A stretch of 18,847 bases of DNA from Candidatus Eiseniibacteriota bacterium (GTDB lineage Bacteria > Eisenbacteria > RBG-16-71-46 > CAIMUX01 > VGJL01): NCBI GenBank assembly GCA_041946735.1, contig JBHGAY010000048.1, positions 1 to 18,847 on the forward strand, given 5' to 3'. Position numbers and translations under genes: made by a program. A model generated the notes under the pieces. That model searched no databases, was not told the DNA's origin, and was given only the letters and a program-made list of their open reading frames with translations. Shown here in pieces: positions 867 to 18,847 of this stretch; position 1 is the first letter of the stretch; the number at the start of each line of letters is the position of its first letter.

Positions 867-3836
867 TTACTTCAGCAGCACCATCCGCGCGTTGTAGGTC
901 TTTCCGTCCGCCTGGAGCCGGCAGAAATAGACTCCCGCCGGAACACGGTGGCCGGCATCGTTCTGGCCGTCCCAGTGCGCGAGGTGCTCGCCCGCCGCCA
1001 GCCGGCCGCTCGCGAGGTTGGCCACGCGACGCCCGCTCGCATCGTAGACGGCGAGGTCGACTTCGCTCGGGTTCCCGAGACGGAAGCGGATGTCGGTGCG
1101 CAGCCCGAACGGGTTCGGCGTGCTCGGCGCGAGGCCGGTCACGAAGCGAACCTGGAAGTCCTCCGTCGCCGCCAGGTCCCACACCGCCGTGAGCAGGAAG
1201 TCATCGAGCCCCGCCTCGACGAGCGAGCCGGGGGAGACGTCCGACGCGACGAAGCGGAACTGCACGATGCCCGGATCGGCGACGTAGTCAGCCAGGTCGA
1301 AGGACATCGGCGCCCACGCGTTCGTCGAGGTGGTCGTGTGCTCGATCGGAGTCCAGCTCTGGCCGCCGTCGTTGGTCACGTCGACGTCCCAGTAGTCCAG
1401 GTCCGGGGAGTTGCCGAGGTTGTTCGTGTAGTACTTCCAGTAGCTGACCTGGATCTGGCTGGCATGCGTCAGATCGAAGTTCGGGGAGAGGACCGTAGTC
1501 TTTCCCGCGTCGACGTCCGCCTCGCCGGCGGCGCCGCCCACCTGGCCGTTGCCGGTGATCCAGCAGATGTGGCCCGGGTCCGTCGTGTGGTCGTTCTCCG
1601 GCTGGCAGGGCTGGCCGTTGTAGGTCGTCCCGATCGGGTCTACCCGCTCCCAACGACCGGAGGCCGCGTCGTCGCCCTCCGCGCCGGCATGCCATGCCGT
1701 CGCCGTCTCCATCTCGTCCGGGAACGCGTCGTCGACCTGGAAGTAGTGCAGCTCGTCGGGGGCGTTGCGCGGGCTCGTCCCGTAGGCGCCCAGGTTGTCC
1801 GAAGCCGAGATGTAGTACTCGACGATCGAACCCCAGGCCGCCCCCGGAATCGTTCCCTCGTACTCGTCGGGATTCCCGGTCGGGACCATGGGCGCCGTCG
1901 CGAAGTCGCCGCCGTTCACGCGGTAGTGCACTTGAACCGAGCTGTCGACGATTTCGCCCTGGCCCAGCGGCAGGGAGACGGCGGTCGCCACGACGTCGTA
2001 CCCCGTCTGCTCAGCCGTGTACGGATGGTCGTCGCTATTGACGAAGACGCCAACGAGGATCTCGGGGCACTCGAAGCCGTGGTTCTGCGCCGCCTCGCAG
2101 AAGATCGCGTGGTGCGGCGTGCCGTCGTCGAGGTTGCCGTTGTCATCGTCCGCCACGAAGGTGGCGAGGACCTGATCCGGCTGCGTTTGCGGGTGCATCA
2201 GCACGCGGCCGAAATGCCAGCGGGTCGCGGACTCGATCGTCCCTTGATCCGTGCCGTACAGCCCCTGCAGCAGCACCATCGAGTCCCAGTTGAAGCCGGC
2301 GATCACCTGCCCGGCCGTGTGGATCTCCTGTCCGACGACGTCATCCGGGTACATCAGATGGTTGAGCGAGTTGCGGATCCCGCTGACGCAGTTGCCGGTG
2401 TAGAAGCCGCGGCCGATGATGGGATCCTGGGTGATGAGGTTCCCGAGGATATCGCTGTTGCCTTCCCCGATGCCCTGGGTCCCCTGGCCTCCGATGACCG
2501 TCTGCGAGACGCCGTGGCCGAACTCATGATGGACGACCTGCTGCAGCTCGCCGGTGTTGGCGTACTGGCCGCCCGCGGCGCAGAAGTTGATCGTCCCGTC
2601 CCACCAGGCGTTGCCCGGGCAGTAGAAGTCGTTGCGGCTGACATACGCGGAGATGCGCTGTTGCGTGTAGGAGAAGCCCGGGTCGAAGAGCTCGAAGAAG
2701 TCATGGACGTCGTTCACCGCATCGAAGGTGTCGCGCTCGTCCTGCTGGGCGTTGGAATCGAAGAAGGTGACGTTCAGCGGGACGTTCTCTTGCGCGGTGC
2801 CCGTGAATGTCGCCTCGGCGCCCGCGAAGTTGTTCATATCGACGAACGGGCCGTACAGGTCGGCGGTCACCTGGCGGGGGCCGCCGGTCCCGTTGATCGA
2901 CCAGTTGCCGTTCGCGTCCGTGTTCACGTTGCCGATCCCATTCACCTGGATGCGGAGGTAGGGGATCGTCATGTTCGTGCTGCCGTCGCACCAGCCGAAG
3001 CGCTGGACCTCGGTCTCCGTGGTGCCGAGGTAGGCGAAGCTGATGTCGTTGTAGCGCCAGAGGATCTCACCCGTGTGCGCGTCGACGTGCGTCACCCAGA
3101 TCCCGAGCGGGTTCTCGGTACGCACCCGCACCTTCCAGACCAGGTGGTGCGAGACCTCGCTGGCCGAGACGGGAACGGGCAGGACGAGCAGCGAGGTGCC
3201 GTCCTCCACGCGGTCGGTCGTTGCGTTGAACGGAACGCTGAGGCGCGCGATCTCGATCGCCTGCTCGCGCGACACACCGGTGACCGGGCTCAGCGAGATG
3301 TTCGGCTGATAGTCGGAGCCCATCAGCATCATCCGGCCATCGTCGGTCAGGATCACGCGGACGACGGCGCCGTGCACGTCGATCCCGTTCCAGGTCTGCT
3401 GGAAGTGGACTCCCCACTTCCCGAGAGCGTGCTCGACGGCGGTCAGACGGAGCTGCGACGCGTCGGCCCGCAGCAAATCCTGGTTGGCGCTGATGACACG
3501 GCGCGCCACGACCTCCGCCTGCGTCGCATCGTCGATCGCGTCGGAGACTTTCGGGCTCGTGCCGTACGCCCAACGGGCGGCGCCGGTCTGCGCGTTCCAG
3601 GAATAGATCTGCCAGTTCCCACCATACCGGGCGGAGAGAGTGCGGGCTCCGGAGAGGGTCGCCGCCATCTTCGCCGGGGACTGGTACCCCTCGATGTCGA
3701 ATTCGGGAAGACGAATCTCGAGAGATTCGTTTTGCGGCATGGGCTGGAATGCGCCCGCAGGCGGCGCGAGCCCGACGAGCAGGGAGGCGAAGGCGAGGAC
3801 GGCAATCCATCCCCCCGAGCGCATGCTGAAGTTCAC
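867..3836 (-). CDS. Secreted thermolysin/fungalysin-like (M4/M36) zinc metallopeptidase with FTP/PepSY-like propeptide, accessory beta domains and C-terminal FlgD-Ig sorting-type domain
   Basis: 989 aa ORF with GTG start and AGGAG SD. Signal peptide (WIAVLAFASLLVGLAPPAGA). Propeptide motifs VHFQQTWNGIDV and HVDAHTGEIL. Catalytic motifs NAWWDG, HEFGH, GEGNSD. C-terminus PNPF...LAVYDASGRRV...WDG...GVYFCRL. Confidence 0.9.
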   Translation of the reverse strand: MNFSMRSGGWIAVLAFASLLVGLAPPAGAFQPMPQNESLEIRLPEFDIEGYQSPAKMAATLSGARTLSARYGGNWQIYSWNAQTGAARWAYGTSPKVSDAIDDATQAEVVARRVISANQDLLRADASQLRLTAVEHALGKWGVHFQQTWNGIDVHGAVVRVILTDDGRMMLMGSDYQPNISLSPVTGVSREQAIEIARLSVPFNATTDRVEDGTSLLVLPVPVSASEVSHHLVWKVRVRTENPLGIWVTHVDAHTGEILWRYNDISFAYLGTTETEVQRFGWCDGSTNMTIPYLRIQVNGIGNVNTDANGNWSINGTGGPRQVTADLYGPFVDMNNFAGAEATFTGTAQENVPLNVTFFDSNAQQDERDTFDAVNDVHDFFELFDPGFSYTQQRISAYVSRNDFYCPGNAWWDGTINFCAAGGQYANTGELQQVVHHEFGHGVSQTVIGGQGTQGIGEGNSDILGNLITQDPIIGRGFYTGNCVSGIRNSLNHLMYPDDVVGQEIHTAGQVIAGFNWDSMVLLQGLYGTDQGTIESATRWHFGRVLMHPQTQPDQVLATFVADDDNGNLDDGTPHHAIFCEAAQNHGFECPEILVGVFVNSDDHPYTAEQTGYDVVATAVSLPLGQGEIVDSSVQVHYRVNGGDFATAPMVPTGNPDEYEGTIPGAAWGSIVEYYISASDNLGAYGTSPRNAPDELHYFQVDDAFPDEMETATAWHAGAEGDDAASGRWERVDPIGTTYNGQPCQPENDHTTDPGHICWITGNGQVGGAAGEADVDAGKTTVLSPNFDLTHASQIQVSYWKYYTNNLGNSPDLDYWDVDVTNDGGQSWTPIEHTTTSTNAWAPMSFDLADYVADPGIVQFRFVASDVSPGSLVEAGLDDFLLTAVWDLAATEDFQVRFVTGLAPSTPNPFGLRTDIRFRLGNPSEVDLAVYDASGRRVANLASGRLAAGEHLAHWDGQNDAGHRVPAGVYFCRLQADGKTYNARMVLLK

Positions 3837-5354: not shown

Positions 5355-5446
5355 TCATCGCTCCTTCCTCGAGCGCGTCGCTCCACGATAGAGCGATCGA
5401 GCACGCACGCAGGATCCTGCCACACGCGAAGACGCCGCGAAAGTGG

Positions 5447-5488
5447 AGATGCGCTTGACCGCGCTTGAACCGCAAGATGCGCTTGACC
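5447..5488. repeat. 14-bp direct repeat AGATGCGCTTGACC x2 with a third GCGCTTGA core between them, in a divergent intergenic region
   Basis: Copies at 5447-5460 and 5475-5488; core at 5461-5468. Confidence 0.6.
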
Positions 5489-5577
5489 CCTTCCGTCGAT
5501 GGCGCAATCCGTGGCACAATTGTTCCCGTCGCATGCCGGCTGGCGATCCGCTCTCGGCCGATCCACGGAGGTGCTGC

Positions 5578-7275
5578 ATGACTTCTCGCTCCACCGCCAT
5601 CCTCGTTCCTGGTCTCTTCGTCCTCGGGCTTCTCGCCGTCGCGCCCGGGCTTGCCCGCGGGCAGGAGGGCACGGAGTCCCCGCCGGTGCCGAGCGGGGCG
5701 CCCCACGTCCACGTCGCTCCCGACGGAGAGACCACCACCACCTGCACCTGCCGCCCGGCCACGGAGGCGGAGCGCGGGGACCTGTCGATCGCCCCCGACG
5801 GCTACGTGCAGGACGAGCCCCGGGAGTCGTTCACGCGGGGGGAGGTGCCTCTGCCGCTCGTCCCCGACTGGGTGGGGACGCGCACGCGTGCGGTCGGCGG
5901 AATGGCGTGGGGAGACGCGGACAACGATGGCGACCTCGACCTGATGGTCGGAACCTACTGGGCGAACCAGTGGCCCCCGCTCGTCGACTACTACAACTTC
6001 CTCTACCTCAACGAAGGCGGGACGCTCGAGAGCCAGCCGAGCTGGATCTCGGTCGATCAGAAGCACACGACCGACGTGAAGGTTTGCGACATCAACCGGG
6101 ACGGCTACCCCGACTTCTTCTTCGCCAACGGTGGCAACTCCTTCCAGCCGAGCCAGGTCTTCTATGGCCGCGACGGCCTGCTGCCGACGACGGCCGGCTG
6201 GGCGAACAACGGCGGAGTGTGGTCGATCGGGGCGGCGGCCGCCGACTTCGATTCCGACGGCGACATCGACGTCGCGCTCGCGAACGAGGGGAACTCCAGC
6301 GATCCCTGGCGGCCCACGACGCTCTACCGCAACACGGGCACCCAACTCGAGGTGAGCCCATCCTGGGCCTCGGCGCAGGTCGGGATCACGAACTCCGTCG
6401 ACTGGGGGGACTTCGACGGCGACGGAGACCTGGACCTGGCCGCCGCGGGCTGGTCGAACTGGCAGACCGGCGTCTGGCGCAACCTCGGCACGACGCTCGA
6501 GACCGGCTTCGCATGGACGACCGGCCACCCGGAGCGGACCGACAAGGGGATCGGATGGGCGCTCGTCGACGCCGACCCGTACTACGACCTCGCGGTGGGC
6601 GGGAACGGGGCGCCGAGCTGGCTTTTCGCCAACGACGGCGACGGGCTTGGATCGTCCCCCGTGTGGGCCTCGACCGACGCCTACCAGGGAACGCAGGAAC
6701 TGACCTGGGTCGACATCGACAACGATGGGGATCCGGATCTCGCCTCGGTCCACTTCTCGACGGGCCACGTGCGGATTCACCTCAACAACGAGGGAGTGCT
6801 CTCGACGCTCGCCGATTGGCAGTACGACGCGGCGGTCAGCGCCACGGCGATCGCTTTCGGCGACCTGAACGGAGACGGCTGGCAGGATCTCGCGGTCGGC
6901 ACGGCGAACGGACCGGTCGAGATCTTCGTGAACTCCGGACCGCCGGCCGGGATTGCGGAGAGCGGATCCGAGCTGCCTCGTCCCGGGGAGGTGCGCGTGC
7001 GCGCCGCGCGCAATCCGGTCGCCGGCATCGCCCGGTTCCAGATCGAGGCGGCCGAGCCGATCACGATCGAGCGGGCCGAGGTGTTCGACGTCGAGGGGCG
7101 GCGGCTCGGAGCGGTGCATGGCCCGCTCTCCGACGCTCGCCGCTCGCGCGTCGTCTCGTGGGATCGCGCGGAGGCGGGAGCGCCCGCCGGGCTCTACTTC
7201 CTCCGCGTGGTCGGACGGAGCGTCGCCGGGGAGGAGATCGTTCGCACCACGCGATTCCTCGTCGTCTCGCGCTGA
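5578..7275 (+). CDS. Secreted FG-GAP/VCBS-repeat beta-propeller protein with C-terminal FlgD-Ig-like sorting domain
   Basis: GGAGGT SD then ATG 5578 (preferred over 5443). Signal peptide ending LARG. About 7 Ca-binding repeats (WGDADNDGDLDL, DINRDGYPD, DFDSDGDID, WGDFDGDGDLDL, DIDNDGDPDL, GDLNGDGWQDL). C-terminus RNPV...VFDVEGRRL...WD...GLYFLRV. Confidence 0.88.
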   Translation: MTSRSTAILVPGLFVLGLLAVAPGLARGQEGTESPPVPSGAPHVHVAPDGETTTTCTCRPATEAERGDLSIAPDGYVQDEPRESFTRGEVPLPLVPDWVGTRTRAVGGMAWGDADNDGDLDLMVGTYWANQWPPLVDYYNFLYLNEGGTLESQPSWISVDQKHTTDVKVCDINRDGYPDFFFANGGNSFQPSQVFYGRDGLLPTTAGWANNGGVWSIGAAAADFDSDGDIDVALANEGNSSDPWRPTTLYRNTGTQLEVSPSWASAQVGITNSVDWGDFDGDGDLDLAAAGWSNWQTGVWRNLGTTLETGFAWTTGHPERTDKGIGWALVDADPYYDLAVGGNGAPSWLFANDGDGLGSSPVWASTDAYQGTQELTWVDIDNDGDPDLASVHFSTGHVRIHLNNEGVLSTLADWQYDAAVSATAIAFGDLNGDGWQDLAVGTANGPVEIFVNSGPPAGIAESGSELPRPGEVRVRAARNPVAGIARFQIEAAEPITIERAEVFDVEGRRLGAVHGPLSDARRSRVVSWDRAEAGAPAGLYFLRVVGRSVAGEEIVRTTRFLVVSR

Positions 7276-8574: not shown

Positions 8575-9369
8575 CTACTCGATCTCATAGACCGCCAGCA
8601 CGGGCCAGTGGTCCGACGGGCTCATCCCGTCCTCGTGGCACTGGGGCACCAGAGCTGCGATGGCGCGCGCCTTGCCGTTGCTCACGATCCAGTCGATCGT
8701 CTCGCTCGGCAGTCCCCATCCGGACGGCTTCGTGGTGGCCGTGATCGAAGGGGACGTTGGGGGCGCCAGCAGGCCCAGTTCGCCGAAGCAGTTCGGCCAG
8801 CCCGCCTCGCGCATCATCTTCGCCGGATGGTACGGGTCGTTCCAGTCGCCCGTGAAGAACGCCGGCTCGCCGTCTCGCACGACCCGGCCGAGCGCCTCGA
8901 TCGCCCGCCGGGTCTGCCCGATCCGCAACGATCGCTCTTCCTCGATCTCCCGCTTGTGGCCGCGATGCGTGAGGTGCGCAGTGCCGGCGAAGATCGTCCT
9001 CTCCGGGGCGGAGGCGGGGCCCGAAGCGCCGGCGGCATCGCTCGACCGTAAGCGCAGGCGGACCCAGAAGAGCCTCCGGTATTCCTCCTCGATTCCGATC
9101 TCCTCGGCCCCGTGCTCCACCTCCTCGAGGTGGAGGGCATTCCAGTAGATGTTCCCTTGCACGGTCCAGCCGGGGAAGCTGTCGTGCACACGCGCGTGCT
9201 GCGGAAGCATCCGGTCGAGGCTCTCCTGGGTCTCCTTGCGCAGCTCCTGCACACAGAGGATGTCGGGCAGGAACGTGGTCACGAACCGGCGGAGGGCGGG
9301 CTCCCGTTCGGGCCAACGCTGCACATTCCACAGGTTGTACGTCACGATCGAGAGTCGCGCGGGGAACAT
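8575..9369 (-). CDS. Endonuclease/exonuclease/phosphatase (EEP) family protein
   Basis: Likely start ATG 9369 with GGAGG SD, not 12543. Motifs TYNL, PDILCVQE, TAHL, GDWN, IDWI, SDHWPV. Confidence 0.9.
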   Translation of the reverse strand: MFPARLSIVTYNLWNVQRWPEREPALRRFVTTFLPDILCVQELRKETQESLDRMLPQHARVHDSFPGWTVQGNIYWNALHLEEVEHGAEEIGIEEEYRRLFWVRLRLRSSDAAGASGPASAPERTIFAGTAHLTHRGHKREIEEERSLRIGQTRRAIEALGRVVRDGEPAFFTGDWNDPYHPAKMMREAGWPNCFGELGLLAPPTSPSITATTKPSGWGLPSETIDWIVSNGKARAIAALVPQCHEDGMSPSDHWPVLAVYEIE

Positions 9370-9406
9370 CGGTGTCCTCCCTGGGGGTTCCGGGTCGTGT
9401 TCGTCG

Positions 9407-9415
9407 ATCGTAGCA
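9407..9415 (-). promoter_or_regulatory. Putative extended -10 element for the EEP gene
   Basis: TGcTACGAT on the minus strand about 40 nt upstream of the start. Confidence 0.35.
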
Positions 9416-9456
9416 TCCTCGCCGGCCCGGAGCGGCTTTCCCGTGTGAGCTTGCTC

Positions 9457-9521
9457 TTTTCGAGTTCCTTCGTGTTCGTTTCGCGTTCGTTCCTTTCGCG
9501 TTCGTTCCTTTCGAGTTCGTT
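9457..9521. repeat. Pyrimidine-rich 15-bp minisatellite (TTTCGCGTTCGTTCC, about 3 copies plus degenerate upstream copies)
   Basis: Copies at 9479-9493, 9494-9508 and 9509-9521, with related TTTTCGAGTTCCTTCGTGTTCG before them. Confidence 0.75.
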
Positions 9522-9642
9522 GCGCCGGCCGCGCGCGTCCGGTACCCTTCGCCCGGATCGTTTCAGGGGGACGAACGACCGTGATCCGACCGGTGCGCAG
9601 GCCGGGGAGCCGGCGCACGAGCGAGACGTCGAGATGAGGGGC

Positions 9643-12510
9643 ATGGACGAGGAGCACAACCGCCGGCCGGCTGATCCGTCGCCGGACGTCGAGACGCGGG
9701 GGATGCCGGAACCGGCGACCCAGGCGATGCAGGATCCCGAAACCGGGGCGATGCCCGATTCCGAAGACCCGGAGATGGGCGCGCGCCCCAAGGAGGCGGC
9801 CGCGATCGACAGCGCCGGAGAGCGGTTCGTCCCCGGGACGATCCTCGCCGGGCGCTATCGAATCGTGGGGACGCTGGGACGCGGCGGGATGGGAGAGGTC
9901 TTCCGCGCGGTCGACATCCGCCTCGGGCAGACGGTCGCGCTGAAGTTCCGGCCGCGGGGCTCGGAGACCGACGTCACGCGCCTGCTGCACGAGGTTCGCG
10001 TCGCGCGTGAGATCGCGCATCCCAACGTCTGCCGGATCTACGACATCGTCGAGAGCGGCGATGAGCAGTTCCTCGCGATGGAGTACGTCGACGGGGAGGA
10101 CCTTTCCTCGCTGCTGCGCCGCATCGGTCGCGTCCCGGGCGACAAGGCGATCGAGATCGCGCGCCAGCTCTGCTCCGGGCTCGCCGGGATTCACGATCGC
10201 GGAGTCCTTCATCGCGATCTGAAGCCGGCGAACGTGATGCTCGACGGACGCGGCCGTGTCCGGATCACCGACTTCGGAATCGCCTCGAGCGGAGCGGGAC
10301 GCAAGGAGGATCGACAGCTCGCGGGAACTCCCGCGTACATGGCGCCGGAACTGCTCGCGGGCGGCGAGGCGACGCGGCAGAGCGACCTCTACGCGCTCGG
10401 CGCGCTGCTCTACGAGGTCTTCACGGGGAAGCACCCGTTCGCGACCGCGACGGCGGGGGGCGGGGCGCGCGATCGTCTCGCTCCCGGTCCGGCCCCCGCG
10501 CCGTCGACTCTGCTCTCCGACATGCATCCGGCCGTCGAGCAGGTCATCCTGCGGTGCCTCGATCCGGATCCGGCGCTGCGGCCTCCGTCGGTGATGGCAG
10601 TTGCCGCCGCGCTTCCCGGATTCGACCCTCTCGCCGAAGCGGTCGCGGCGGGTCAGACTCCATCCCCCGAGATGGTGGCGGAGGCGGGGAAGAGCGGCGC
10701 TCTGAGCGCTCGCTCCGCCCTCGGACTGCTGAGCGGCGCGTTCATCCTGATGCTGACCGTCACCGTCCTTCAGTCGAGCACCAACGTCGTCAACCGCCTT
10801 CCGATCGACAAGCCGCCGGCTGTGATGAACGAGCGGGCGATGCAGATCCTGAAGGAGCAGGGGTACACGGCGAGGCCCGCGCAGCGGATCGGCCGCTACG
10901 AGACGCTGCGCGACTCCTCGCGCCCTCTGCCGCGGACGCCGCCCGGATTCGATCTGCGGGGCGAGGCGGCCAAGACCCGTCCCTGGCCGGTCGTCTACCG
11001 CTACCGCAGCAGCCCGCGGGCGATGCTGCCGCATGGCCGGCTGATCGGAGCGGACGATCCGCCGTTCATTCGCGCCGGCATGACGCGCCTCACGCTCGAT
11101 CTCGAAGGCCGGCTCGTCGCCTTCGAGGTCGTCGCTCCGGGGGGACCGGACAGCGCCGGTGCTGCGGCTGCCGCGCCTGCGCCTGCGTCTGCCGTGCCTG
11201 CGCCTGCGGCTGCGGCGCAAACCGCTGCCTCTGCGGCTGCCGCGCAAGCGGCTACGACTACCGCCATGTCGGCGGCCGTGGCCGTCCAGCCCGACTGGTC
11301 GACGCTCTTCACGAGCGCGGGACTGAAGATGTCGGACTTCCGCGAGGAGACGCCCGTCCGCGCGCCGGCCGTGCCATCGGACCACGTGCAGGGCTGGCGT
11401 GGGGCGCTTCCGGAATCGCCATCCGACACGCTGCGAATCGCAGCCGGCAGCTACGGCGGCCGGCCCGTCTCGTTCGTGATCTACGGATCCCGTGGGTGGA
11501 GTGGAGCGGTGGAGGAGAGGGTCGACCCCGAGCCCGGCTCGCTCACGATCGCGTGGGCGGTGATTGCGATGGCCGTCCTCACGGCGCTGTTCCTCGGGAT
11601 CGCCGGCTTCGTCTATCTCGCCTACCGTCGCGGCCGATGGGATCGCCGCCTGGCACGGAACACCGCGGTGAGCCTCTTCGTCATGACCTTGGTAGGTTGG
11701 CTCCTCTCGTCCGACCTTCCCGCCGGGATTCAGGCGCTCGGCAGCATCCCGAAGGCTCTGAAGCACGGGCTGCTGATCGGGGCTCTCTGCTGGCTCCTCT
11801 ACGTGGCGCTCGAACCGCTCGGACGGCGCTACTGGCCCCACGGGGTGATCGGCTGGACGCGCCTCACCTCGGGACGCTTCCGGGACCCCCTCGTCGGCCG
11901 CGACATCCTGGCCGGGGCGTTGCTCGGAATCCTCGCAGGCCTGCTCGGAGTGCTGGCGCAGAGCTACCTCCCGCGATGGGTCGGGGACCCGCCGGCGATC
12001 GAGATGCTTCACAAGGCGGGCAACTCCCTCGGCCTCGGCGGGGGAAGGAGGGCGCTCGGGATGCTGCTCACCATCCTCCCGCAGACTCTCTTCGGCTCCG
12101 TCGTCCTGTTCTTCCTCTACCTGCTCCCGCGAACCTTCCTGCGGAATCGGATCGCCGCGCTGGCGATCACGTTCGGCGCCTACCTCGCGATACGCATGGT
12201 CGGGGAATCGGCGCGCGGGACGACCTGGCCCGCGGCGATCCTCGAGGTCGGCGCCGCCGTCGTCCTTCTCGCGGGGATGATCCGCTTCGGGATCCTGACG
12301 GGACTCGTCGCGTCCTTCTGCCTGGGATTGCTGCGCGCCTTCCCGTTCACCTGGGACCTGTCCCTCTGGTATGCGGGCGTCGGGGCGACCGGAGTCGTCG
12401 TGGTTGCGTCGATCGCCGCCTACGGCGCCTGGGTGGCTTCGCGCCGGAAGCTGGGGACGCAAGGGACCGCATCGGCCGCAACGCTTGGGCGGCGGACGAC
12501 CTCGATCTGA
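9643..12510 (+). CDS. Hanks-type Ser/Thr protein kinase with extracytoplasmic domain and C-terminal multi-TM membrane domain
   Basis: Kinase motifs GRGGMGEV, VALK, HPNV, HRDLKPAN, DFG, GTPAYMAPE, DLYALG. One TM after the kinase, a roughly 250-aa soluble region, then about 8 hydrophobic helices. Start uncertain (ATG 9634 or 9643; GAGGGG precedes 9643). Confidence 0.9.
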   Translation: MDEEHNRRPADPSPDVETRGMPEPATQAMQDPETGAMPDSEDPEMGARPKEAAAIDSAGERFVPGTILAGRYRIVGTLGRGGMGEVFRAVDIRLGQTVALKFRPRGSETDVTRLLHEVRVAREIAHPNVCRIYDIVESGDEQFLAMEYVDGEDLSSLLRRIGRVPGDKAIEIARQLCSGLAGIHDRGVLHRDLKPANVMLDGRGRVRITDFGIASSGAGRKEDRQLAGTPAYMAPELLAGGEATRQSDLYALGALLYEVFTGKHPFATATAGGGARDRLAPGPAPAPSTLLSDMHPAVEQVILRCLDPDPALRPPSVMAVAAALPGFDPLAEAVAAGQTPSPEMVAEAGKSGALSARSALGLLSGAFILMLTVTVLQSSTNVVNRLPIDKPPAVMNERAMQILKEQGYTARPAQRIGRYETLRDSSRPLPRTPPGFDLRGEAAKTRPWPVVYRYRSSPRAMLPHGRLIGADDPPFIRAGMTRLTLDLEGRLVAFEVVAPGGPDSAGAAAAAPAPASAVPAPAAAAQTAASAAAAQAATTTAMSAAVAVQPDWSTLFTSAGLKMSDFREETPVRAPAVPSDHVQGWRGALPESPSDTLRIAAGSYGGRPVSFVIYGSRGWSGAVEERVDPEPGSLTIAWAVIAMAVLTALFLGIAGFVYLAYRRGRWDRRLARNTAVSLFVMTLVGWLLSSDLPAGIQALGSIPKALKHGLLIGALCWLLYVALEPLGRRYWPHGVIGWTRLTSGRFRDPLVGRDILAGALLGILAGLLGVLAQSYLPRWVGDPPAIEMLHKAGNSLGLGGGRRALGMLLTILPQTLFGSVVLFFLYLLPRTFLRNRIAALAITFGAYLAIRMVGESARGTTWPAAILEVGAAVVLLAGMIRFGILTGLVASFCLGLLRAFPFTWDLSLWYAGVGATGVVVVASIAAYGAWVASRRKLGTQGTASAATLGRRTTSI

Positions 12511-12559
12511 AATCGCAGGCGCAGCGTATCGCCGGGGGCGCACGTCGTGTCCGCCGCCG

Positions 12560-12823
12560 TCAATCCAGCCAGTCCTGCTGGATCCGCGCGATCCGGGAGA
12601 GGACAGCGCGCCCCGTCCCGCTCAGCCCTTGCGGGTCGAGGGCTCGCTCGATCGCCCGGGTCTCCCGCTGCAAGTCGAAGAGGCGCTCGCGCTGCTCCTC
12701 GGAGAGGTCGAGCCAGGCGGGCGAGGGGAGGATGACTCCGAGCGCGTCACGCTCGCGGTAGGCGGACGCCGCCTGCTCGATCGTCGTCCCAGCCGGATCG
12801 TCCGGCCGGAGCCTGTCGGTCAT
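12560..12823 (-). CDS. Hypothetical 87-aa protein translationally coupled to the upstream sigma-4-like ORF
   Basis: GGAGG SD. ATG overlaps the upstream TGA (ATGA at 12820-12823). Protein-like helical sequence (AASAYRERD...PAWLDLSEEQRERLFD...IERALDPQGLSGTGRAVLSRI). Confidence 0.7.
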   Translation of the reverse strand: MTDRLRPDDPAGTTIEQAASAYRERDALGVILPSPAWLDLSEEQRERLFDLQRETRAIERALDPQGLSGTGRAVLSRIARIQQDWLD

Positions 12824-13062
12824 CGAAGCACCTCCTCGACCCGGTAGCCGCGGTGGCGCAGGCAGTCCCTCAGGTGCTCCCGCGCGCGCCCGAAGTTCTT
12901 CAGGAAGGTGTTGACCGTCATTCGCAAGCCGCGGGCCAGGTCGCGGTCGGGGGCCGATCCCGCCGAGGCGATCCGGGCCATCATCACCCGATGCTGCGTT
13001 GGCGATAGGCGATCGATGCATTCGCGGATCGCTCGCTCGAGCTGGGGATCGGGCAGCGCCAA
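12820..13062 (-). pseudogene. ECF sigma-70 region-4-like HTH fragment (5'-truncated sigma factor or stand-alone sigma-4 protein)
   Basis: LERAIRECIDRLSPTQHRVMMAR...DRDLARGLRMTVNTFLKNFGRAREHLRDCL matches the ECF region-4 pattern (L..C+..L....R.+....+A..L......+.....RAR..LR.CL). No region 2 and no SD-linked start; nearest candidate is TTG 13062. Confidence 0.55.
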
Positions 13063-13087
13063 GCAATGGAATCGCCGGACGAAGACA

Positions 13088-13163
13088 GCGGAGGGGACGA
13101 GCCGCTTCGCAGCGATCCGTCCCCTCCGCGTCCGATGGGGGGGGGCGCCAGTCAGTGGCGCCC
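13088..13163 (-). terminator. Two GC-rich hairpins downstream of the S8 protease gene
   Basis: GGGCGCCA-gtcag-TGGCGCCC (13143-13163) and GCGGAGGGGACG...CGTCCCCTCCGC (12-bp stem, 13088-13129, with inner CGCT-tcgc-AGCG). Confidence 0.5.
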
Positions 13164-13186
13164 AACCAGACGAGGCCGTGAAGATG

Positions 13187-16087
13187 CTAGCGCACGAGCA
13201 GGACCTTCTCGTTCGCCGTCTCCCGATCGCTCGAGATCCGGACGAAGTAGACACCGCCAGGGACGGCCCGGCCCAGGTCGTCTTTACCGTCCCAGCCGAT
13301 CGTGTGGCCTCCGGCCATCTGCCATCCGTTCCAGAGGGAGCGGACCCGCCGGCCCGCAGCGTCGAAGATCGAGATCTCCACGTCGCCGTTGCGCGGGATC
13401 GCGTAGCGGACGTCCGCGGCCGCCCGCATCGGGTTGGGCCCGATGGTCGCCTGGAACGCCGTCGACACCGGCGGCTGCGAAGCGGGGACCTCGAGGCTCG
13501 GACGCTCCTCGAGGGCGACCGCGCGTCCGGTCCGTCCCGCGAGAAGCAGTCCCGTCATCCGCGACTCGGTGGCGTCGTGCGAACCCCAGCGCCGCACGAG
13601 CGGCACCTCGATCGTCACCGGCTCCTGGCCCGCCGCGATGGCTCCGGCCAGCGCGTAGACGACGAGCTTCTCCTGGCCGAGCCGCGAGACGTGCGCAACG
13701 CGGACGTTCGCGCCGGCTCCGCGGACGGCCGGATCGCCGGCCACCTCGAAGCCGCGCGCCGGGATGAAGCTCATCTCGACGCCGGCGATGTCCCCCGCGC
13801 GCAACGTGAACCGGTAGGAATCCTCGTTGACCCCCTCGCCCCAGGCGATCGGCGTCGACGGTCCCTCGGAAGCGGCGAGGGCGCCGTCCGCCGGCCGGCC
13901 CGGCTCTCCGCCGTTCAGGATGATGTTCACGATCGCGACGACGTCGAGGATGTTGATCGAGCCGTTGCCGTCGACGTCGGCGCAGGCGCGCGGTCCCTCG
14001 CCCAGCGGCTGCAGCTGGAGGATGTCGTTGACCGTCGCCACGACGTCGAGGACGTTGACCGAGTTGTCCGCGGTCGCGTCGCCCGAGCGGGTCGCGCACT
14101 GGGGAGGACCGCCGCCGCCGACTGCGTCGACCGCCGCTTTCACGTCGAGCTTGCCGGCTCCGAACTTGCGGTTCGGCGTCGTGCCTGTCCAGTTGTCCGA
14201 GCGCGCGGTGTCCTGAAGGATCGTCTTCACCTGGCTCGGGGTGAGCGTTGGGTCCTTCTGGAGCATCAGGGCGATGGCGCCGGCGACGTGCGGGGTGGCC
14301 ATCGAGGTCCCGGGCATGATCACGTACTTCTGCGTCGGATCGGTGGTCGCCGGTTCGTTGTCCGATCCGGCCGCGAAGACCGACATGATCCAGGCGCCCG
14401 GCGCGGAAAGGTCCGGCTTCGCGGCGCCATGGCGCAGCGGCCCCCACGAGCTGAAGGAGCTGATGTCTCCCACCTCGTTCTCGTTCAGCGCCTGGTAGTG
14501 GCCGTCGAGACCATCCCATTCGAGCTTCGTGTTGTACGAGCCGACCGTGATCACTCCGGAGCAGCTTCCCGGCATCCCGACGATCGCCTCGTCGTTGGCT
14601 CCGGTCGTCACCCGGATGTTCGGCTGGTTGCGCTCGCAGAAGAGATCGACGACACCGCCCGAGGGCAGGGCGTTCTCGGCGATCGCGCGGATCGTCCAGT
14701 TCCCTCCCTCCACGCCGTTGGTCCGGTTCTGGATGATGTAGGAGGCGTAGCCCTGGCCGTTCACGGCCGAGGAGGTGGTCGTCCAGTAGAAGACCGAGTC
14801 GGAATGTGCGGTGCGCGTCCCGGGATATTGATCGAGCGGGATCGAGGACGGAACGTCGATCGTCGCGCCGCTCGGAGTCTGGACCTGCCACCGGAAGGCG
14901 TCTCCCTGATCGTACCAGCACTCGAAGAAGACCATGCCGCGCGCGCCCTGGGAGACGTCGTGCTGGATCACGAACGTTCCCTGTCCGCCCGGCGAGACGT
15001 CGGCGCGGCCGTGCCACGCCTCGTCTTGATCATTCCCGGACGCAACGCAGACGATCAGGTTGTCGTTCTGGATCATCTGGTTGTATGCCGTCTCGAAGAG
15101 GGTCGTCCCGTCGTGGGGCCCCATCATCGTGCCCTGGCTCTGGTTGACGACGAGCGGCTTGCCGAGCTGATCCCTCTTTTGCAGGAACCACTGCAGCGCG
15201 TCGATCGAACCCTTCGTGTCCTGCGGGCCGTAGGGAGGCATCCCCCCTCCGTAGCAGAACATGTCGCACCATCCGTTACGGACGGCGAGGATGTCCGCCT
15301 CCCAGGCGACACCGCGGTACTTGAGCGTCGGAGTCGAGGAGCCGTCGCCGACCGCGATCCCGGCAACGTGCGCGCCGTGGCCGCCGAAGTCGATGAAACT
15401 GGTCGCCTGCCCCGCGTCGATCTGTGACTTCGAGTACTCCGTCCCGTAGCCGAAGCCGGCGGGCGGGGCCCCGTCGATCCACTGATCCCAGACGTAGAGG
15501 GCGCGCGTCTTTCCCTGCCCGTCCTTGAAGTCGTCGTGGGTGAGATCGATCCCGTCGTCGAGGAGGCCGAACAGGACGCCGCGGCCGGTGTAGCCGCCCG
15601 CTCCGTTGACCAGGTTCGCCCGCACTTCCGGAACCGAGACGTCGAGGTTCGCCTCCATCCGGTACGACGCCTCGACCGCGTCGATCCCCGGATCGGAGCC
15701 GAGAAGCTCGAGCGTCTCCGCCGTCACCACCGCCGTGACAATGTCCCCGACGCGGGAGTCCGGCTCGGCTCCGAGCGCGGCCAACTCCGCGTCGGAGAGG
15801 CTCGTCCGGATCAGGACCGGATAGCGGATCTCCTCGAACGAGTCGCCGAGCAGCCGGATCTGCCGCCCCAGCGGGGCCAGGGTGCGGGCATTCTTCTCGG
15901 GAGTCGCGAGCGTGAGAAGCAGCCGCGGATCGAGCTTGCGGGCGGCCTCCCGCGAGACGGGTAGCGGCCGCGACAGCGACCGCTCTCCATGTGTCGTGTC
16001 CATCCCTTCCGCCCGCGCCGCGCTCCCCATGGGGAGCGCCAACGGCAAGAGAAGGAGGAGCGCCATTCGCGAAGTCAGGTTCTTCAA
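13187..16087 (-). CDS. Secreted S8 (subtilisin, CspA-like) serine protease with dockerin, cohesin-like module and C-terminal FlgD-Ig sorting-type domain
   Basis: Start TTG 16087 (GGAGG SD) or ATG 16102. Signal peptide ending AARA. Triad LDDGID / HGAHVAGIA / GTSMATPHVAG; oxyanion ASGND followed by a roughly 140-aa insertion. Dockerin duplicated loops GDATADNSVNVLDVV and ADVDGNGSINILDVV. C-terminus PNPM...IFDAAGRRV...WDG...GVYF. Confidence 0.92.
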   Translation of the reverse strand: MKNLTSRMALLLLLPLALPMGSAARAEGMDTTHGERSLSRPLPVSREAARKLDPRLLLTLATPEKNARTLAPLGRQIRLLGDSFEEIRYPVLIRTSLSDAELAALGAEPDSRVGDIVTAVVTAETLELLGSDPGIDAVEASYRMEANLDVSVPEVRANLVNGAGGYTGRGVLFGLLDDGIDLTHDDFKDGQGKTRALYVWDQWIDGAPPAGFGYGTEYSKSQIDAGQATSFIDFGGHGAHVAGIAVGDGSSTPTLKYRGVAWEADILAVRNGWCDMFCYGGGMPPYGPQDTKGSIDALQWFLQKRDQLGKPLVVNQSQGTMMGPHDGTTLFETAYNQMIQNDNLIVCVASGNDQDEAWHGRADVSPGGQGTFVIQHDVSQGARGMVFFECWYDQGDAFRWQVQTPSGATIDVPSSIPLDQYPGTRTAHSDSVFYWTTTSSAVNGQGYASYIIQNRTNGVEGGNWTIRAIAENALPSGGVVDLFCERNQPNIRVTTGANDEAIVGMPGSCSGVITVGSYNTKLEWDGLDGHYQALNENEVGDISSFSSWGPLRHGAAKPDLSAPGAWIMSVFAAGSDNEPATTDPTQKYVIMPGTSMATPHVAGAIALMLQKDPTLTPSQVKTILQDTARSDNWTGTTPNRKFGAGKLDVKAAVDAVGGGGPPQCATRSGDATADNSVNVLDVVATVNDILQLQPLGEGPRACADVDGNGSINILDVVAIVNIILNGGEPGRPADGALAASEGPSTPIAWGEGVNEDSYRFTLRAGDIAGVEMSFIPARGFEVAGDPAVRGAGANVRVAHVSRLGQEKLVVYALAGAIAAGQEPVTIEVPLVRRWGSHDATESRMTGLLLAGRTGRAVALEERPSLEVPASQPPVSTAFQATIGPNPMRAAADVRYAIPRNGDVEISIFDAAGRRVRSLWNGWQMAGGHTIGWDGKDDLGRAVPGGVYFVRISSDRETANEKVLLVR

Positions 16088-16143
16088 CCGTCTACCCTCC
16101 ATCGGCGGCTCGGCGCGGGTCGTCCCCGGCGAGCCTTCTGCGG

Positions 16144-16812
16144 TCAACCGGATCGTTCGTTCGAGAGCTTCTGAAGAAATGCGAGGACGGCGGACTCGAA
16201 GCTCGGATAGGTGACCCCGCCGATCGTCCAGGTCACGGGATTCCCGGCCTCGATGCTGCTCGCCTGGATCTGATTCGCGGCGTCGAGCGCTTGCGCGATC
16301 TGGTTCTTTCCCGCCAGCGCGAACGCCTCGACCAACACCAGGTCTTCGACGTTGAAGCTCGGCCGGTGCGAGAAGATGAACGACGGATTCGCAAGACGGG
16401 CCGCCTGCGCGTCGGTGATCGCGGAGCTGAGGTACAGGTCGCTTCCGAGAGCCAGCGCGGCCGCTGCCCGACCGGCGCGCAGGTCCGCGCCGGTCTCGCC
16501 ATGCTGGCTGGCGTTCTCGAACGCCGCGATCGCGGTCGCCAGCTCGGTCGAGCCGCTCGCCCGGCTGAGGTGGGTCCATCCCTTCCCGACGTATGCGGGG
16601 CCGTAGGTGGCATCCGCCTTGATGGCGGCGTCGAACGACTCCATCGCGGCGCCGAAGTCGCCTTGCTCGAACTCCGTCCAGCCTTCCGACGTCAACTCTT
16701 CCGGTGTCCCCGGTTCCACGATGTTGCTGCCCCCGTCCCCCCCGCCGCACGAAAGGCCGCCCGCGAGGAGCAGCAGCGCCAGCAGCCGGGCGGCACGGTC
16801 GATCCTTCTCAT
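16144..16812 (-). CDS. TPR-containing lipoprotein
   Basis: GGAGAGAGG SD and ATG 16812. Lipoprotein signal MRRIDRAARLLALLLLAGGLS-C. TPR-like helices GWTEFEQGDFGAAMESFDAAIKADATYGPAYVGKGWTHL. Confidence 0.85.
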   Translation of the reverse strand: MRRIDRAARLLALLLLAGGLSCGGGDGGSNIVEPGTPEELTSEGWTEFEQGDFGAAMESFDAAIKADATYGPAYVGKGWTHLSRASGSTELATAIAAFENASQHGETGADLRAGRAAAALALGSDLYLSSAITDAQAARLANPSFIFSHRPSFNVEDLVLVEAFALAGKNQIAQALDAANQIQASSIEAGNPVTWTIGGVTYPSFESAVLAFLQKLSNERSG

Positions 16813-16921
16813 CGATTCCTCTCTCCGGGCCTTCGACGGTTCCCGGGTCGTCTCCTGGTTCGTGGTCTTCGCGGCGCAGGCCGCCCGCGCGGATCTCAAC
16901 GCATCTCGCATCGCATCCTCC

Positions 16922-18847
16922 TCAGAAGTTCACCGTGGTGGAGGATGTCCCGGTGTCGACGCCGTCGGACCCGTTCGCCTGGATCTGCACGCTCGTGTCG
17001 GTGGCCGCGGCATGGTAGGTGGTCGTGTAGAGGAACTTCTGCGCGTCGATCTCGACGAGGTCGATCTGCGTCGTCCCGATCGTGATCGAGCGGGTCAGAA
17101 GCCGCTTGCTCGAAGTGACGAAGATCTGCAATGTGCGCGGCCTGCCGGGATTCTTCAGCGCGAGGACGTGCATCTCGATGGCGCCCGGCGCGACGGTCGT
17201 GATGGTGAAATCGCCGTCCGAGACGTCGGTCGCCTGATGCGTGATGTCCGAGACGGTGACGCGCACGCGGGCGTGCGTCGTCGCCACCTGCGGCACGCTC
17301 CACGGGTAGCTCCCGCTGTTCGTCTGGTTGGCGGCGATCACCGTCCAGGTGGTGCCGCTGTCGGTCGAATAGTCGAGCGAAATGAGCAGGTTCTGCGACG
17401 GGGTGTCCGGATCGCTCGCGATCCACGTGATCTGCTGCTGCGAGCCGCCCGCCCAGCTCTCGCCACCGTTGGGGGCGTTCAGCGTCACCGTCGGATTGCC
17501 CGTCTCGCTGGTGACCTGAATCGATCCCGCCTGACTCGTGACGGAGAGCGGCTGGCCGCTGGGATCAGAGAGGATCGTCTCGGTCGGTGTGAGCGCCGAC
17601 TGCGTGCCGCCCGCTCCGGTCAGATGGAAGGTCAAGTTGGCGACAGCGCCATTGCCGGCGGAGAGCGTCGTCGCGTCACTGTAGTACATCACGACCCGCA
17701 CCTTGTTGCCGCCGATGACGGAGGCCGAGAAGCTCATCCCAGCTCCGCGCTCGGTCGCGATGCCGCTCGTGTAGGAGACGACCGCGGGGTCGAAGGTGAT
17801 GTCGGTCTGCAGCGCCTTGACGGTGTCCTCGTTCTGCAGGCCGAGCGGCACGGTTACGTCGCTGCCGCTCGCGCCGGTCCCCGTGCCGGCCGAGAGGACG
17901 TTGTTCCCGGGCGGAGGCCCCTGCGTGATCGCGAAGTTGGCGTTGGATGTGTCCGAAGCCTGGTTCGTGCCGTCGGAAGCGGTGACGCGCACGCGCGCCT
18001 GCGTCGTCGCCACGGCCGGGAGCGTCCAGTTGTAGCTGCCGCTGTTCGTCTGGCCGGTGGCGATCGAGGTCCAGGTGCCGCCGCTGTTCGTCGAGTAGTC
18101 GAGCGCGATCGTCAGGTTCTGGGACGGTGTGTCGGGGTCGGTCGCGGTCCAGGTGATCGCATGCTGCGATCCCGCCGCCCAGCTCTCGCCGCCGTTGGGG
18201 GAGCTGACCGTCACGACCGGCGGGAGGCTCGTCCCCTCGGTGACCTGGATCGATCCCGCTTGATTGGTGACCGCGAGGGACTGGCCGGCCGGATCGGAAA
18301 GGATCGTCGCGCTCGGAGTGAGGGCCGTCTGCGTGCCTCCGGCGCCGACGAGCTGGAACGTGAGGTTCGCGAGAGCGCCGCTGCCGGCCGACAGGACGGT
18401 CTGGTCCGCGTAATACATCACGACGCGGACCTTGTTGCCGCCGATCACCGCCGCCGAAAAGCTCATGGTCGCCCCGCGACCGGTCGCCGAGCCGCTCACG
18501 TAGGAAACGACGGCGGGATCGAACGTGACGTCGGTCTGCAGCGCCTTGACGGTGCTCTCGTTCTGCAGGTTGAGCGGGATCGAGACCTGGGAGCCGCTCT
18601 CTCCGCTTCCGGTTCCGGCCGACACCACGTTGTCCCCGGGCGGCGGGCCCTGCGTGATCGCGAAGTTCGCGTTGGAAGTGTCGGAGCCCTGGTTCGCGCC
18701 GTCGGAAGCGGTCACGCGCACGCGCGCCTGGGTGGTCGCCACGGCCGGGATCGTCCAGTTGTAGCTGCCGCTGTTCGCCTGGCCGGCCGCGATCGAGGTC
18801 CAGGTGCCGCCGCCGTTCGTCGAGTAGTCGAGCGCGATCGTCAGGTT
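16922..18847 (-). CDS. Scaffoldin-like protein (5'-partial): repeated [Ig-like SPNGGE domain + cohesin] units and a unique C-terminal beta-rich domain
   Basis: Frame is open from the window edge (NLTIALDYSTNGGGTW...) to the stop at 16922, 641 sense codons. Two cohesin-like domains (about 18239-18634 and 17510-17905: VSIPLNLQN...ALQTDVTFDPAVVSY...GALANLTFQ...ILSDPAG...GSIQVT) alternate with three Ig-like domains (two complete with (S/A)PNGGESW..GSQ..ITW...DYST..G.TW; the first cut by the window edge). Confidence 0.85.
   Translation of the reverse strand, partial: NLTIALDYSTNGGGTWTSIAAGQANSGSYNWTIPAVATTQARVRVTASDGANQGSDTSNANFAITQGPPPGDNVVSAGTGSGESGSQVSIPLNLQNESTVKALQTDVTFDPAVVSYVSGSATGRGATMSFSAAVIGGNKVRVVMYYADQTVLSAGSGALANLTFQLVGAGGTQTALTPSATILSDPAGQSLAVTNQAGSIQVTEGTSLPPVVTVSSPNGGESWAAGSQHAITWTATDPDTPSQNLTIALDYSTNSGGTWTSIATGQTNSGSYNWTLPAVATTQARVRVTASDGTNQASDTSNANFAITQGPPPGNNVLSAGTGTGASGSDVTVPLGLQNEDTVKALQTDITFDPAVVSYTSGIATERGAGMSFSASVIGGNKVRVVMYYSDATTLSAGNGAVANLTFHLTGAGGTQSALTPTETILSDPSGQPLSVTSQAGSIQVTSETGNPTVTLNAPNGGESWAGGSQQQITWIASDPDTPSQNLLISLDYSTDSGTTWTVIAANQTNSGSYPWSVPQVATTHARVRVTVSDITHQATDVSDGDFTITTVAPGAIEMHVLALKNPGRPRTLQIFVTSSKRLLTRSITIGTTQIDLVEIDAQKFLYTTTYHAAATDTSVQIQANGSDGVDTGTSSTTVNF
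17200..18847 (-). repeat. Intragenic tandem repeat with 729/726-bp period (243/242 aa)
   Basis: Equivalent anchor CAGGTT ends at 18847, 18118 and 17392. The first two Ig copies are nearly identical at DNA level. Confidence 0.85.

Follow-up and report, generated by a model that had tools for sequence, protein, structure and literature searches.

A conserved cohesin-dockerin gene cluster of Eisenbacteria and Krumholzibacteriota as a candidate lipoprotein-tethered protease complex

The stretch of DNA analysed here (the window, 18,847 nucleotides) is an entire contig, C43, of a Candidatus Eiseniibacteriota genome of 4.89 Mb that is 94.8% complete. It contains three genes on the minus strand, separated by gaps of 109 nt and 56 nt, which encode part of a cohesin-bearing scaffold, a lipoprotein with similarity to tetratricopeptide repeat (TPR) proteins and a secreted S8 protease carrying a dockerin. 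We consider it probable, if by no means secure, that these genes specify a small unit built in the manner of a cellulosome, in which a lipoprotein-tethered scaffold with two cohesins captures dockerin proteases exported by type IX secretion. This reading is based on the conserved gene order, on a cargo dominated by proteases and on the co-occurrence of cohesins and dockerins. The features of the cluster are the following (Ig, immunoglobulin-like repeat; Coh, cohesin; CT, C-terminal domain; T9SS, type IX secretion system).

16922-18847, minus strand: 3' part of the scaffold gene, 641 aa, open at the contig end, order (Ig)-Coh-Ig-Coh-Ig-CT
18242-18637, minus strand: cohesin 1, type I-like, 10 of 10 conserved residues of the putative dockerin face
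17921-18226, minus strand: Ig-like spacer repeat, Kre9_KNH-like, with more copies at about 17200-17500 and (partial) 18650-18847
17513-17908, minus strand: cohesin 2, 78% identical to cohesin 1, 10 of 10 face residues
16925-17191, minus strand: CT, a beta-rich domain of about 90 aa with an invariant N-P motif
16144-16812, minus strand: TPR-like lipoprotein, 222 aa, signal peptide, Cys22
13187-16087, minus strand: secreted S8 protease, 966 aa, with signal peptide, prodomain, Csp-like S8 domain with an insertion, dockerin, X domain and T9SS type A/FlgD tail
13910-14098, minus strand: dockerin, two calcium-loop repeats, conserved Cys pair
13508-13855, minus strand: X domain, a cis module with a degenerate cohesin fold, packed against the dockerin in the predicted structure
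13190-13447, minus strand: T9SS type A/FlgD-Ig sorting tail (TIGR04183, 24.4 against a cut-off of 23; PF13860, 38.1 against 27)

The original prediction, made from the letters of the window, had described a co-directional cluster with short gaps, two cohesins in the first gene, a lipoprotein in the middle and a secreted subtilase with a two-loop dockerin. All of these parts were recovered and the domain coordinates given for them were correct to within a few codons. The Pfam comparison it had suggested yielded matches above cut-off for both families, Cohesin (PF00963) with 80.6 bits (cut-off 24.1) in two stretches, 17513-17893 and 18242-18625, and Dockerin_1 (PF00404) with 25.9 bits (cut-off 22.9) at 13919-14083. 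Profiles of both domains matched type I modules in the PDB. The cohesin profile aligned with 6KGC and 1G1K over positions 5-132, which comprise the whole beta-sandwich, and the dockerin matches included 8X39. The model of the dockerin matched the type I dockerin 2CCL_B with a Z score of 11.8 and a root-mean-square deviation (rmsd) of 1.5 over 62 aligned residues. The protease, equal in length to the database protein P0030, gave 145.9 bits with Peptidase_S8, and motif reading revealed an intact triad (D177/H237/S595) and oxyanion residue (N352); its closest solved relatives are the clostridial Csp proteases. The protease has the signal peptide and the C-terminal sorting domain of T9SS type A cargo. 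In the genome, SprA, eight PorV-family matches and one PorU match were found above cut-off, along with FlgD-tail matches numbering at least 150 (249 candidates, of which 150 were scored). The tail, with TIGR04183 just above its cut-off, is accordingly interpreted as a sorting signal for type IX secretion. GldM gave no match in the genome, but the control was silent as well and the result is uninformative. Eisenbacteria are presumably placed near the Fibrobacteres-Chlorobi-Bacteroidetes group.

Since the window ends inside the scaffold gene, its 5' part had to be sought elsewhere. At the start of contig C59 (L001:3-653, minus strand) lies an open frame that encodes a signal peptide, then a PPC domain (39.8 bits) and the first part of the scaffold's Ig repeat; the order PPC-Ig-cohesin also occurs in scaffolds of relatives. 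The 5' part is most likely this frame, the join being our reconstruction. Near-identical DNA was detected in two runs, one from soil and possibly the source, the other from industrial waste and part of another study; no RNA dataset was listed among the runs carrying it. In the putative source run both cohesins lie at single-copy read depth (about 25 compared to 25.3), and loose read ends in two runs indicate that one Ig unit runs directly into another, so that the gap probably contains at least one more Ig unit. For these reasons, extra cohesins hidden in the assembly gap were rejected, and the full scaffold probably has the order PPC, two or more Ig, Coh, Ig, Coh, Ig, CT. It is thus a non-catalytic protein with two cohesins, while scaffolds of relatives possess one to four, the number having changed by lineage-specific duplication. 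No cellulose-binding module was found in the two scaffold pieces scanned, between which a short unassembled gap remains. An inventory of the genome with Pfam and locally built profiles returned two cohesins and two dockerins. The genome-wide dockerin count that had been proposed thereby gave two proteins, both S8 proteases. The second one (contig C19, L003:5274-8831) belongs to another S8 subfamily, has the same dockerin-X-FlgD tail and is likely a second cargo.

The gene order is conserved in relatives, as the original prediction had suggested should be looked for. It was compared across 39 loci with a strong CT match in two phyla (21 in the own order, 18 in Krumholzibacteriota). Most loci of the own order were retrieved via the lipoprotein, and a genome-wide CT search returned the same 21 places; 17 Krumholzibacteriota loci were retrieved via CT alone. 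Cohesins, one to four per scaffold, are present at 34 of the 39 loci, and a dockerin gene follows just downstream in 27 of these 34; four of the remaining seven loci end within 2 kb. By comparison, none of the five cohesin-free CT loci, one of which is short, has a dockerin gene. The same association was detected at the level of genomes. Among 35 genomes of the own order, cohesin was found in 22, dockerin in 21, both in 20 and neither in 12; cohesin alone occurs in G004 and G024, dockerin alone in G034, which is 69% complete. Among 208 Krumholzibacteriota genomes, 14 have the cohesin and 13 the dockerin, all 13 within the 14, and 194 have neither. Within a genome the dockerin is rare. One to three dockerin genes occur per genome, and in the own genome two dockerin proteins, one of them adjoining the only cohesin gene, face the at least 150 FlgD-tail matches. 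Three frameshifts were noticed at such loci, one inside a cohesin (L036:8633), one before an S8 tail (L036:13649) and one inside a dockerin (L046:6609); they may reflect either decay or errors of assembly.

The cargo consists mostly of proteases. Of 37 dockerin genes matched in the own order, 35 were inspected, two weak ones being excluded and Pfam being applied to a subset. Twenty-two encode S8, four M6 and four trypsin-like proteases (30 of 35), and one is a short stand-alone dockerin; a recognised family of carbohydrate-active enzymes (CAZymes) was seen in none of the 35. A database search gave a similar picture, with 31 dockerin proteins of which 11 have S8 and 13 trypsin domains, and no CAZyme family among them. 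In the window itself no CAZyme domain was detected among 11 open reading frames scanned with Pfam, in agreement with the original prediction. Its central claim, a surface multi-enzyme proteolytic complex in a diderm, gained from synteny, co-occurrence and the cargo; "multi-enzyme", however, goes too far for a genome that has two cohesins and whose only dockerin proteins are two S8 proteases. Four dockerin-bearing proteins are BNR/Vps10-like propellers (L046:12995-16420, L053:3255-6704, L066 and L069), located upstream of the scaffold in two loci; they had no sequence match in the PDB and only sub-threshold family matches, and may be either receptors for substrate or enzymes acting on glycans.

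To describe the putative binding face of the cohesins, ten conserved positions outside the core were defined (K31, G/A32, Q34, D36, R54, M58, R71, V73, Y75 and D115). By alignment to 6KGC numbering this surface falls on strands 3, 5, 6 and 8. Five of the ten positions align with 6KGC residues that, according to PMC7608827, lie in or at the dockerin interface. Scaffold cohesins mostly retain 8-10 of 10 face residues down to 35% overall identity. In three genomes with a scaffold cohesin in which no dockerin was found, the face is altered (2, 6 and 7 of 10).

A likely anchor of the scaffold can be deduced from its neighbours. The TPR lipoprotein domain lies within 1 kb after CT at all 39 loci, and lipoprotein matches occurred in 32 of 61 genomes searched; matches to TPR families in Pfam were below cut-off. 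Strong CT matches among 206 genomes of the own phylum were confined to the own order. CT had no Pfam family, no NCBIfam match and no sequence match in the PDB. A variant of the FlgD tail was considered and rejected, because profile similarity was lacking. Comparison with the ESM Atlas placed CT near unnamed Ig-like clusters (0.91) and the lipoprotein near unnamed TPR clusters, the taxa of which are mostly unrecorded; both matches serve as leads only. Three genomes contain alternative arrangements. In G011 (99% complete), which has neither a CT nor a TPR match, a lipidated scaffold directly precedes the S8-dockerin gene. In two genomes from other orders, the gene that comes after the S8-dockerin gene encodes a lipoprotein with one cohesin (G046) or a PPC-Ig-cohesin protein with its own FlgD tail (G053). 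As CT and the TPR lipoprotein are both absent where the scaffold itself is a lipoprotein, and as there are three interchangeable endings, the pair likely anchors the scaffold to the membrane. It matched no described family and is a candidate for a new lipoprotein-based envelope anchor. Three TPR lipoproteins bear an Ig domain themselves (L045:9008-10492, L047:8259-9611 and L056:8290-9726), in two cases together with a cohesin whose face is decayed. Distant CT-like domains were seen inside large FlgD-tailed proteins, adjoining genes for distant TPR lipoproteins (L084-L088 and L091); no lipoprotein gene of this kind was seen beside the domain in L089 or L090. The pattern suggests that the tether family is wider.

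Taken together, the proposed unit would work as follows. The TPR lipoprotein would hold the CT of the scaffold and thus tether the scaffold to the cell envelope. Dockerin-tagged proteases would, by prediction, leave through a secretion system of type IX-like kind. The scaffold cohesins would capture the dockerins in trans in a calcium-dependent manner, either by displacing X, the degenerate cis domain that as a weaker cap would have protected the dockerin during export, or by using the second site of the dockerin. A complex located at the surface would keep protein digestion close to the cell. In the own genome, each scaffold would carry at most two S8 proteases. It is a minimal system and not a many-enzyme one, because there are two cohesins and two dockerins in the genome. 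A bolder version can be imagined, in which the proteases of a self-gating "proteolysome" are exported with X capping their dockerins, the stronger cohesin of the scaffold takes the dockerin at the surface and the freed X catches the dockerin of the next enzyme, giving rise to chains of proteases on two sockets; here, the pair of TPR lipoprotein and N-P Ig domain would be a general envelope tether in Eisenbacteria and Krumholzibacteriota that also serves cohesin-free proteins. We put this version forward as speculation and doubt that it holds in full.

A number of observations weigh against capture in trans. X is itself a cohesin fold (hhalign probability 57%; Foldseek top matches 2VO8 and 2XDH), with Z scores of 10.4-10.9 over 109-115 aligned residues to several cohesins (2XDH: Z 10.9, rmsd 2.7, 109 aligned; 2VN5_A: Z 10.8). 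All 31 aligned dockerin-bearing proteins continue into the X region, and X retains equivalents of the face residues G, Q/E, V/L, Y and D, though not of K, D and R. Dockerin and X were modelled together across a disordered linker with a predicted local distance difference test (pLDDT) score of 92.5 and a predicted template modelling (pTM) score of 0.88 (0.67 for a three-domain model), from which packing in cis is predicted with confidence, and the dockerin may be occupied by it. Among the 50 structure matches listed, no alignment spanned dockerin and X as one full unit. The original prediction had named binding of the dockerin to nothing but its own cis cohesin-like module as evidence to the contrary; such a module does exist and is predicted to pack on the dockerin. 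It is conceivable that all of this reflects a cis-only function. Dockerin and X would then form a self-contained, calcium-stabilised stalk between enzyme and sorting tail, while the scaffold would be a separate lipoprotein-tethered surface or adhesion protein whose cohesin folds bind something else, the genes being neighbours through a shared niche. Besides the model and the partly preserved face of X, this explanation can draw on the CT and TPR pairs without cohesins at 5 of 39 loci and on cohesin-dockerin-X-FlgD arrangements within one chain in other orders. It does not explain, however, why, although a genome has many tail-bearing proteins, just one to three of them possess dockerin-X, and this almost exclusively where a scaffold cohesin is present, why three differently anchored cohesin genes have been kept beside an S8-dockerin gene, or why the face motif is preserved at such low overall identity. 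We regard it as rather unlikely, though as an explanation to be taken seriously. The first helix of the dockerin is more conserved than the third, which is compatible with two different partners. The single-chain proteins of other orders (L097:2501-4699 and L098:358-2361) are possibly adaptors or self-polymerising units.

Other points against the proposed unit concern the data and the anchor. The face positions were chosen from the same alignment in which they were scored, and second cohesin copies in dockerin-bearing genomes also score 4-7 of 10. In a quick tree, which is poorly resolved and supports no donor or order of events, cohesins borne by lipoproteins form a group with two of the three decayed ones, which may therefore represent a separate subtype. 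Thresholds for presence and absence were placed at an E-value gap seen after the search, the genomes are related and thus not independent of each other, and many of them had also contributed sequences to the profiles. With the four propellers, a part of the cargo (4 of 35) is not proteolytic. The CT and TPR pair also serves roles outside a cohesin complex, because a paralogous pair on contig C17 of the own genome (L002:321-2722) comprises a gene for signal peptide-PPC-3 Ig-CT followed by a TPR lipoprotein 41% identical to that of the window and has no cohesin; no dockerin gene was found near it. Finally, Pfam and NCBIfam scans and the comparison of CT with the FlgD tail revealed no recognised outer-membrane export tag on scaffold or lipoprotein, and the residues following the lipoprotein Cys match neither K-(D/E)2 nor Q-A-(D/E)2, the export signals given in PMC5080379. 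These gaps would suit a periplasmic role, in which trans binding is real and the lipoprotein-tethered scaffold holds, folds or meters the dockerin proteases before type IX export, the more so as the cargo bears a tail of its own and the genome encodes PorU, which could attach it to the surface without a scaffold. This alternative appears improbable in view of the FlgD tail borne by the G053 variant itself, the presence in the scaffolds of PPC, Ig and further modules that secreted proteases typically have, and a cohesin number that varies through lineage-specific duplication as in display scaffolds. An alternative with the same architecture as the proposed unit differs from it in purpose only. 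The proteases might remodel the envelope, mature proteins or attack other cells instead of serving nutrition, as a tether for one or two proteases like the clostridial S8 double-dockerin protein on ScaD. The small size of the system, with so few dockerin genes per genome, and the proximity of its S8 domain to the Csp processing proteases among solved structures would fit, and processing roles for cellulosomal peptidases are suggested in PMC12484212. A cargo spanning three unrelated protease families plus a propeller argues against it, and we think it very improbable.

The unit of the own order shares several traits with the clostridial cellulosome (1OHZ, 2CCL, 2VN5, 6KGC). A secreted protein that is not itself catalytic bears cohesins in tandem, the enzymes have two-loop dockerins at their C-termini, and the folds match. 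It differs by the host, which is a diderm, by the small numbers of cohesins (1-4) and dockerin genes (1-3), by the lack of a cellulose-binding module in the scaffold pieces scanned and of recognised CAZyme cargo, and by the cis cohesin fold and T9SS-type tail that come after the dockerin. In addition, the dockerin helix residues are neutral or acidic and the cohesin face is basic. The build is cellulosome-like, but the cargo of many plant-polysaccharide hydrolases that defines a cellulosome is lacking. Protease-directed cohesin-dockerin systems have already been proposed in print, for Planctomycetes and Cloacimonadota. The planctosome of freshwater Planctomycetes is likewise a hypothetical system for polypeptide degradation in a diderm; according to PMC6461901, it has a lamin-tail anchor, P-domains, an adaptor and M12B/M14 peptidases, none of which appeared in our Pfam scans of scaffold and cargo. 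Instead, a TPR lipoprotein/CT pair, S8, M6 and trypsin-like cargo and an operon conserved in two phyla were found. For Ca. Stygibacter (Cloacimonadota), PMC8542988 reports dockerin-bearing S8 and other enzymes, a tandem-cohesin scaffoldin and secretion by a C-terminal domain (CTD), as proposed here; its scaffoldin, however, has 3,755 aa with CBM2/CBM3 modules and a CTD of its own, and its cargo is a mixture of GH18, GH57 and peptidases, while the scaffold described here is small, devoid of CTD and carbohydrate-binding module in the pieces scanned, and its cargo nearly protease-only. The double-dockerin S8 protease of C. thermocellum (8X39) is likewise tethered via a dockerin to a cell-bound cohesin, but in a monoderm and as a cellulosome accessory, and its second module is a dockerin and not a cohesin fold (PMC12484212). 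Non-cellulolytic bearers of scaffoldins are listed in PMC11557425. The best structural matches of X are non-cellulosomal cohesins of Archaeoglobus fulgidus (2XDH) and Clostridium perfringens (2VO8, 2W1N). No paper joining Eisenbacteria with cohesin or Krumholzibacteriota with dockerin, or dealing with the operon, was found in a search of main texts that covered few subscription journals. Papers reportedly exist on complexes named mucinolysome and amylosome.

While earlier protease-directed complexes were proposed from single lineages, this one is compact, with three genes, is conserved in two phyla and offers natural swaps of the anchor. It is likely aimed at the digestion of protein rather than plant fibre. 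Its main interest lies in the candidate anchor pair and the cis-capped dockerin, and few recombinant domains suffice to make the idea directly testable. If it holds true, designer scaffolds would gain cohesin-dockerin pairs of a new specificity class, and the system would also provide a candidate envelope anchor of a new lipoprotein-based type and a case of a cis-capped dockerin that bears on the role of the many dockerin-cohesin tails of type IX cargo.

Within 12400-17100, neither a sigma-70 promoter nor a terminator consensus was detected. A short sigma-70-like gene (13254-12820, minus strand; weak TIGR02989 match) starts inside the 3' end region of the protease gene. It faces a gene for a membrane Ser/Thr kinase (9112-12510, plus strand), and the two possibly form a kinase/extracytoplasmic function (ECF) pair; an overlapping small open reading frame is also present. 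Elsewhere in the window, a secreted M36/M4-like metallopeptidase with a propeptide and a T9SS tail, devoid of a dockerin, is encoded at 867-3836 (minus strand). The gene at 5443-7275 (plus strand) encodes a secreted protein with repeats that look FG-GAP-like by eye and a tail similar to a sorting domain, and a fragment of a Mutator-family transposase lies at the contig end (119-538, plus strand).

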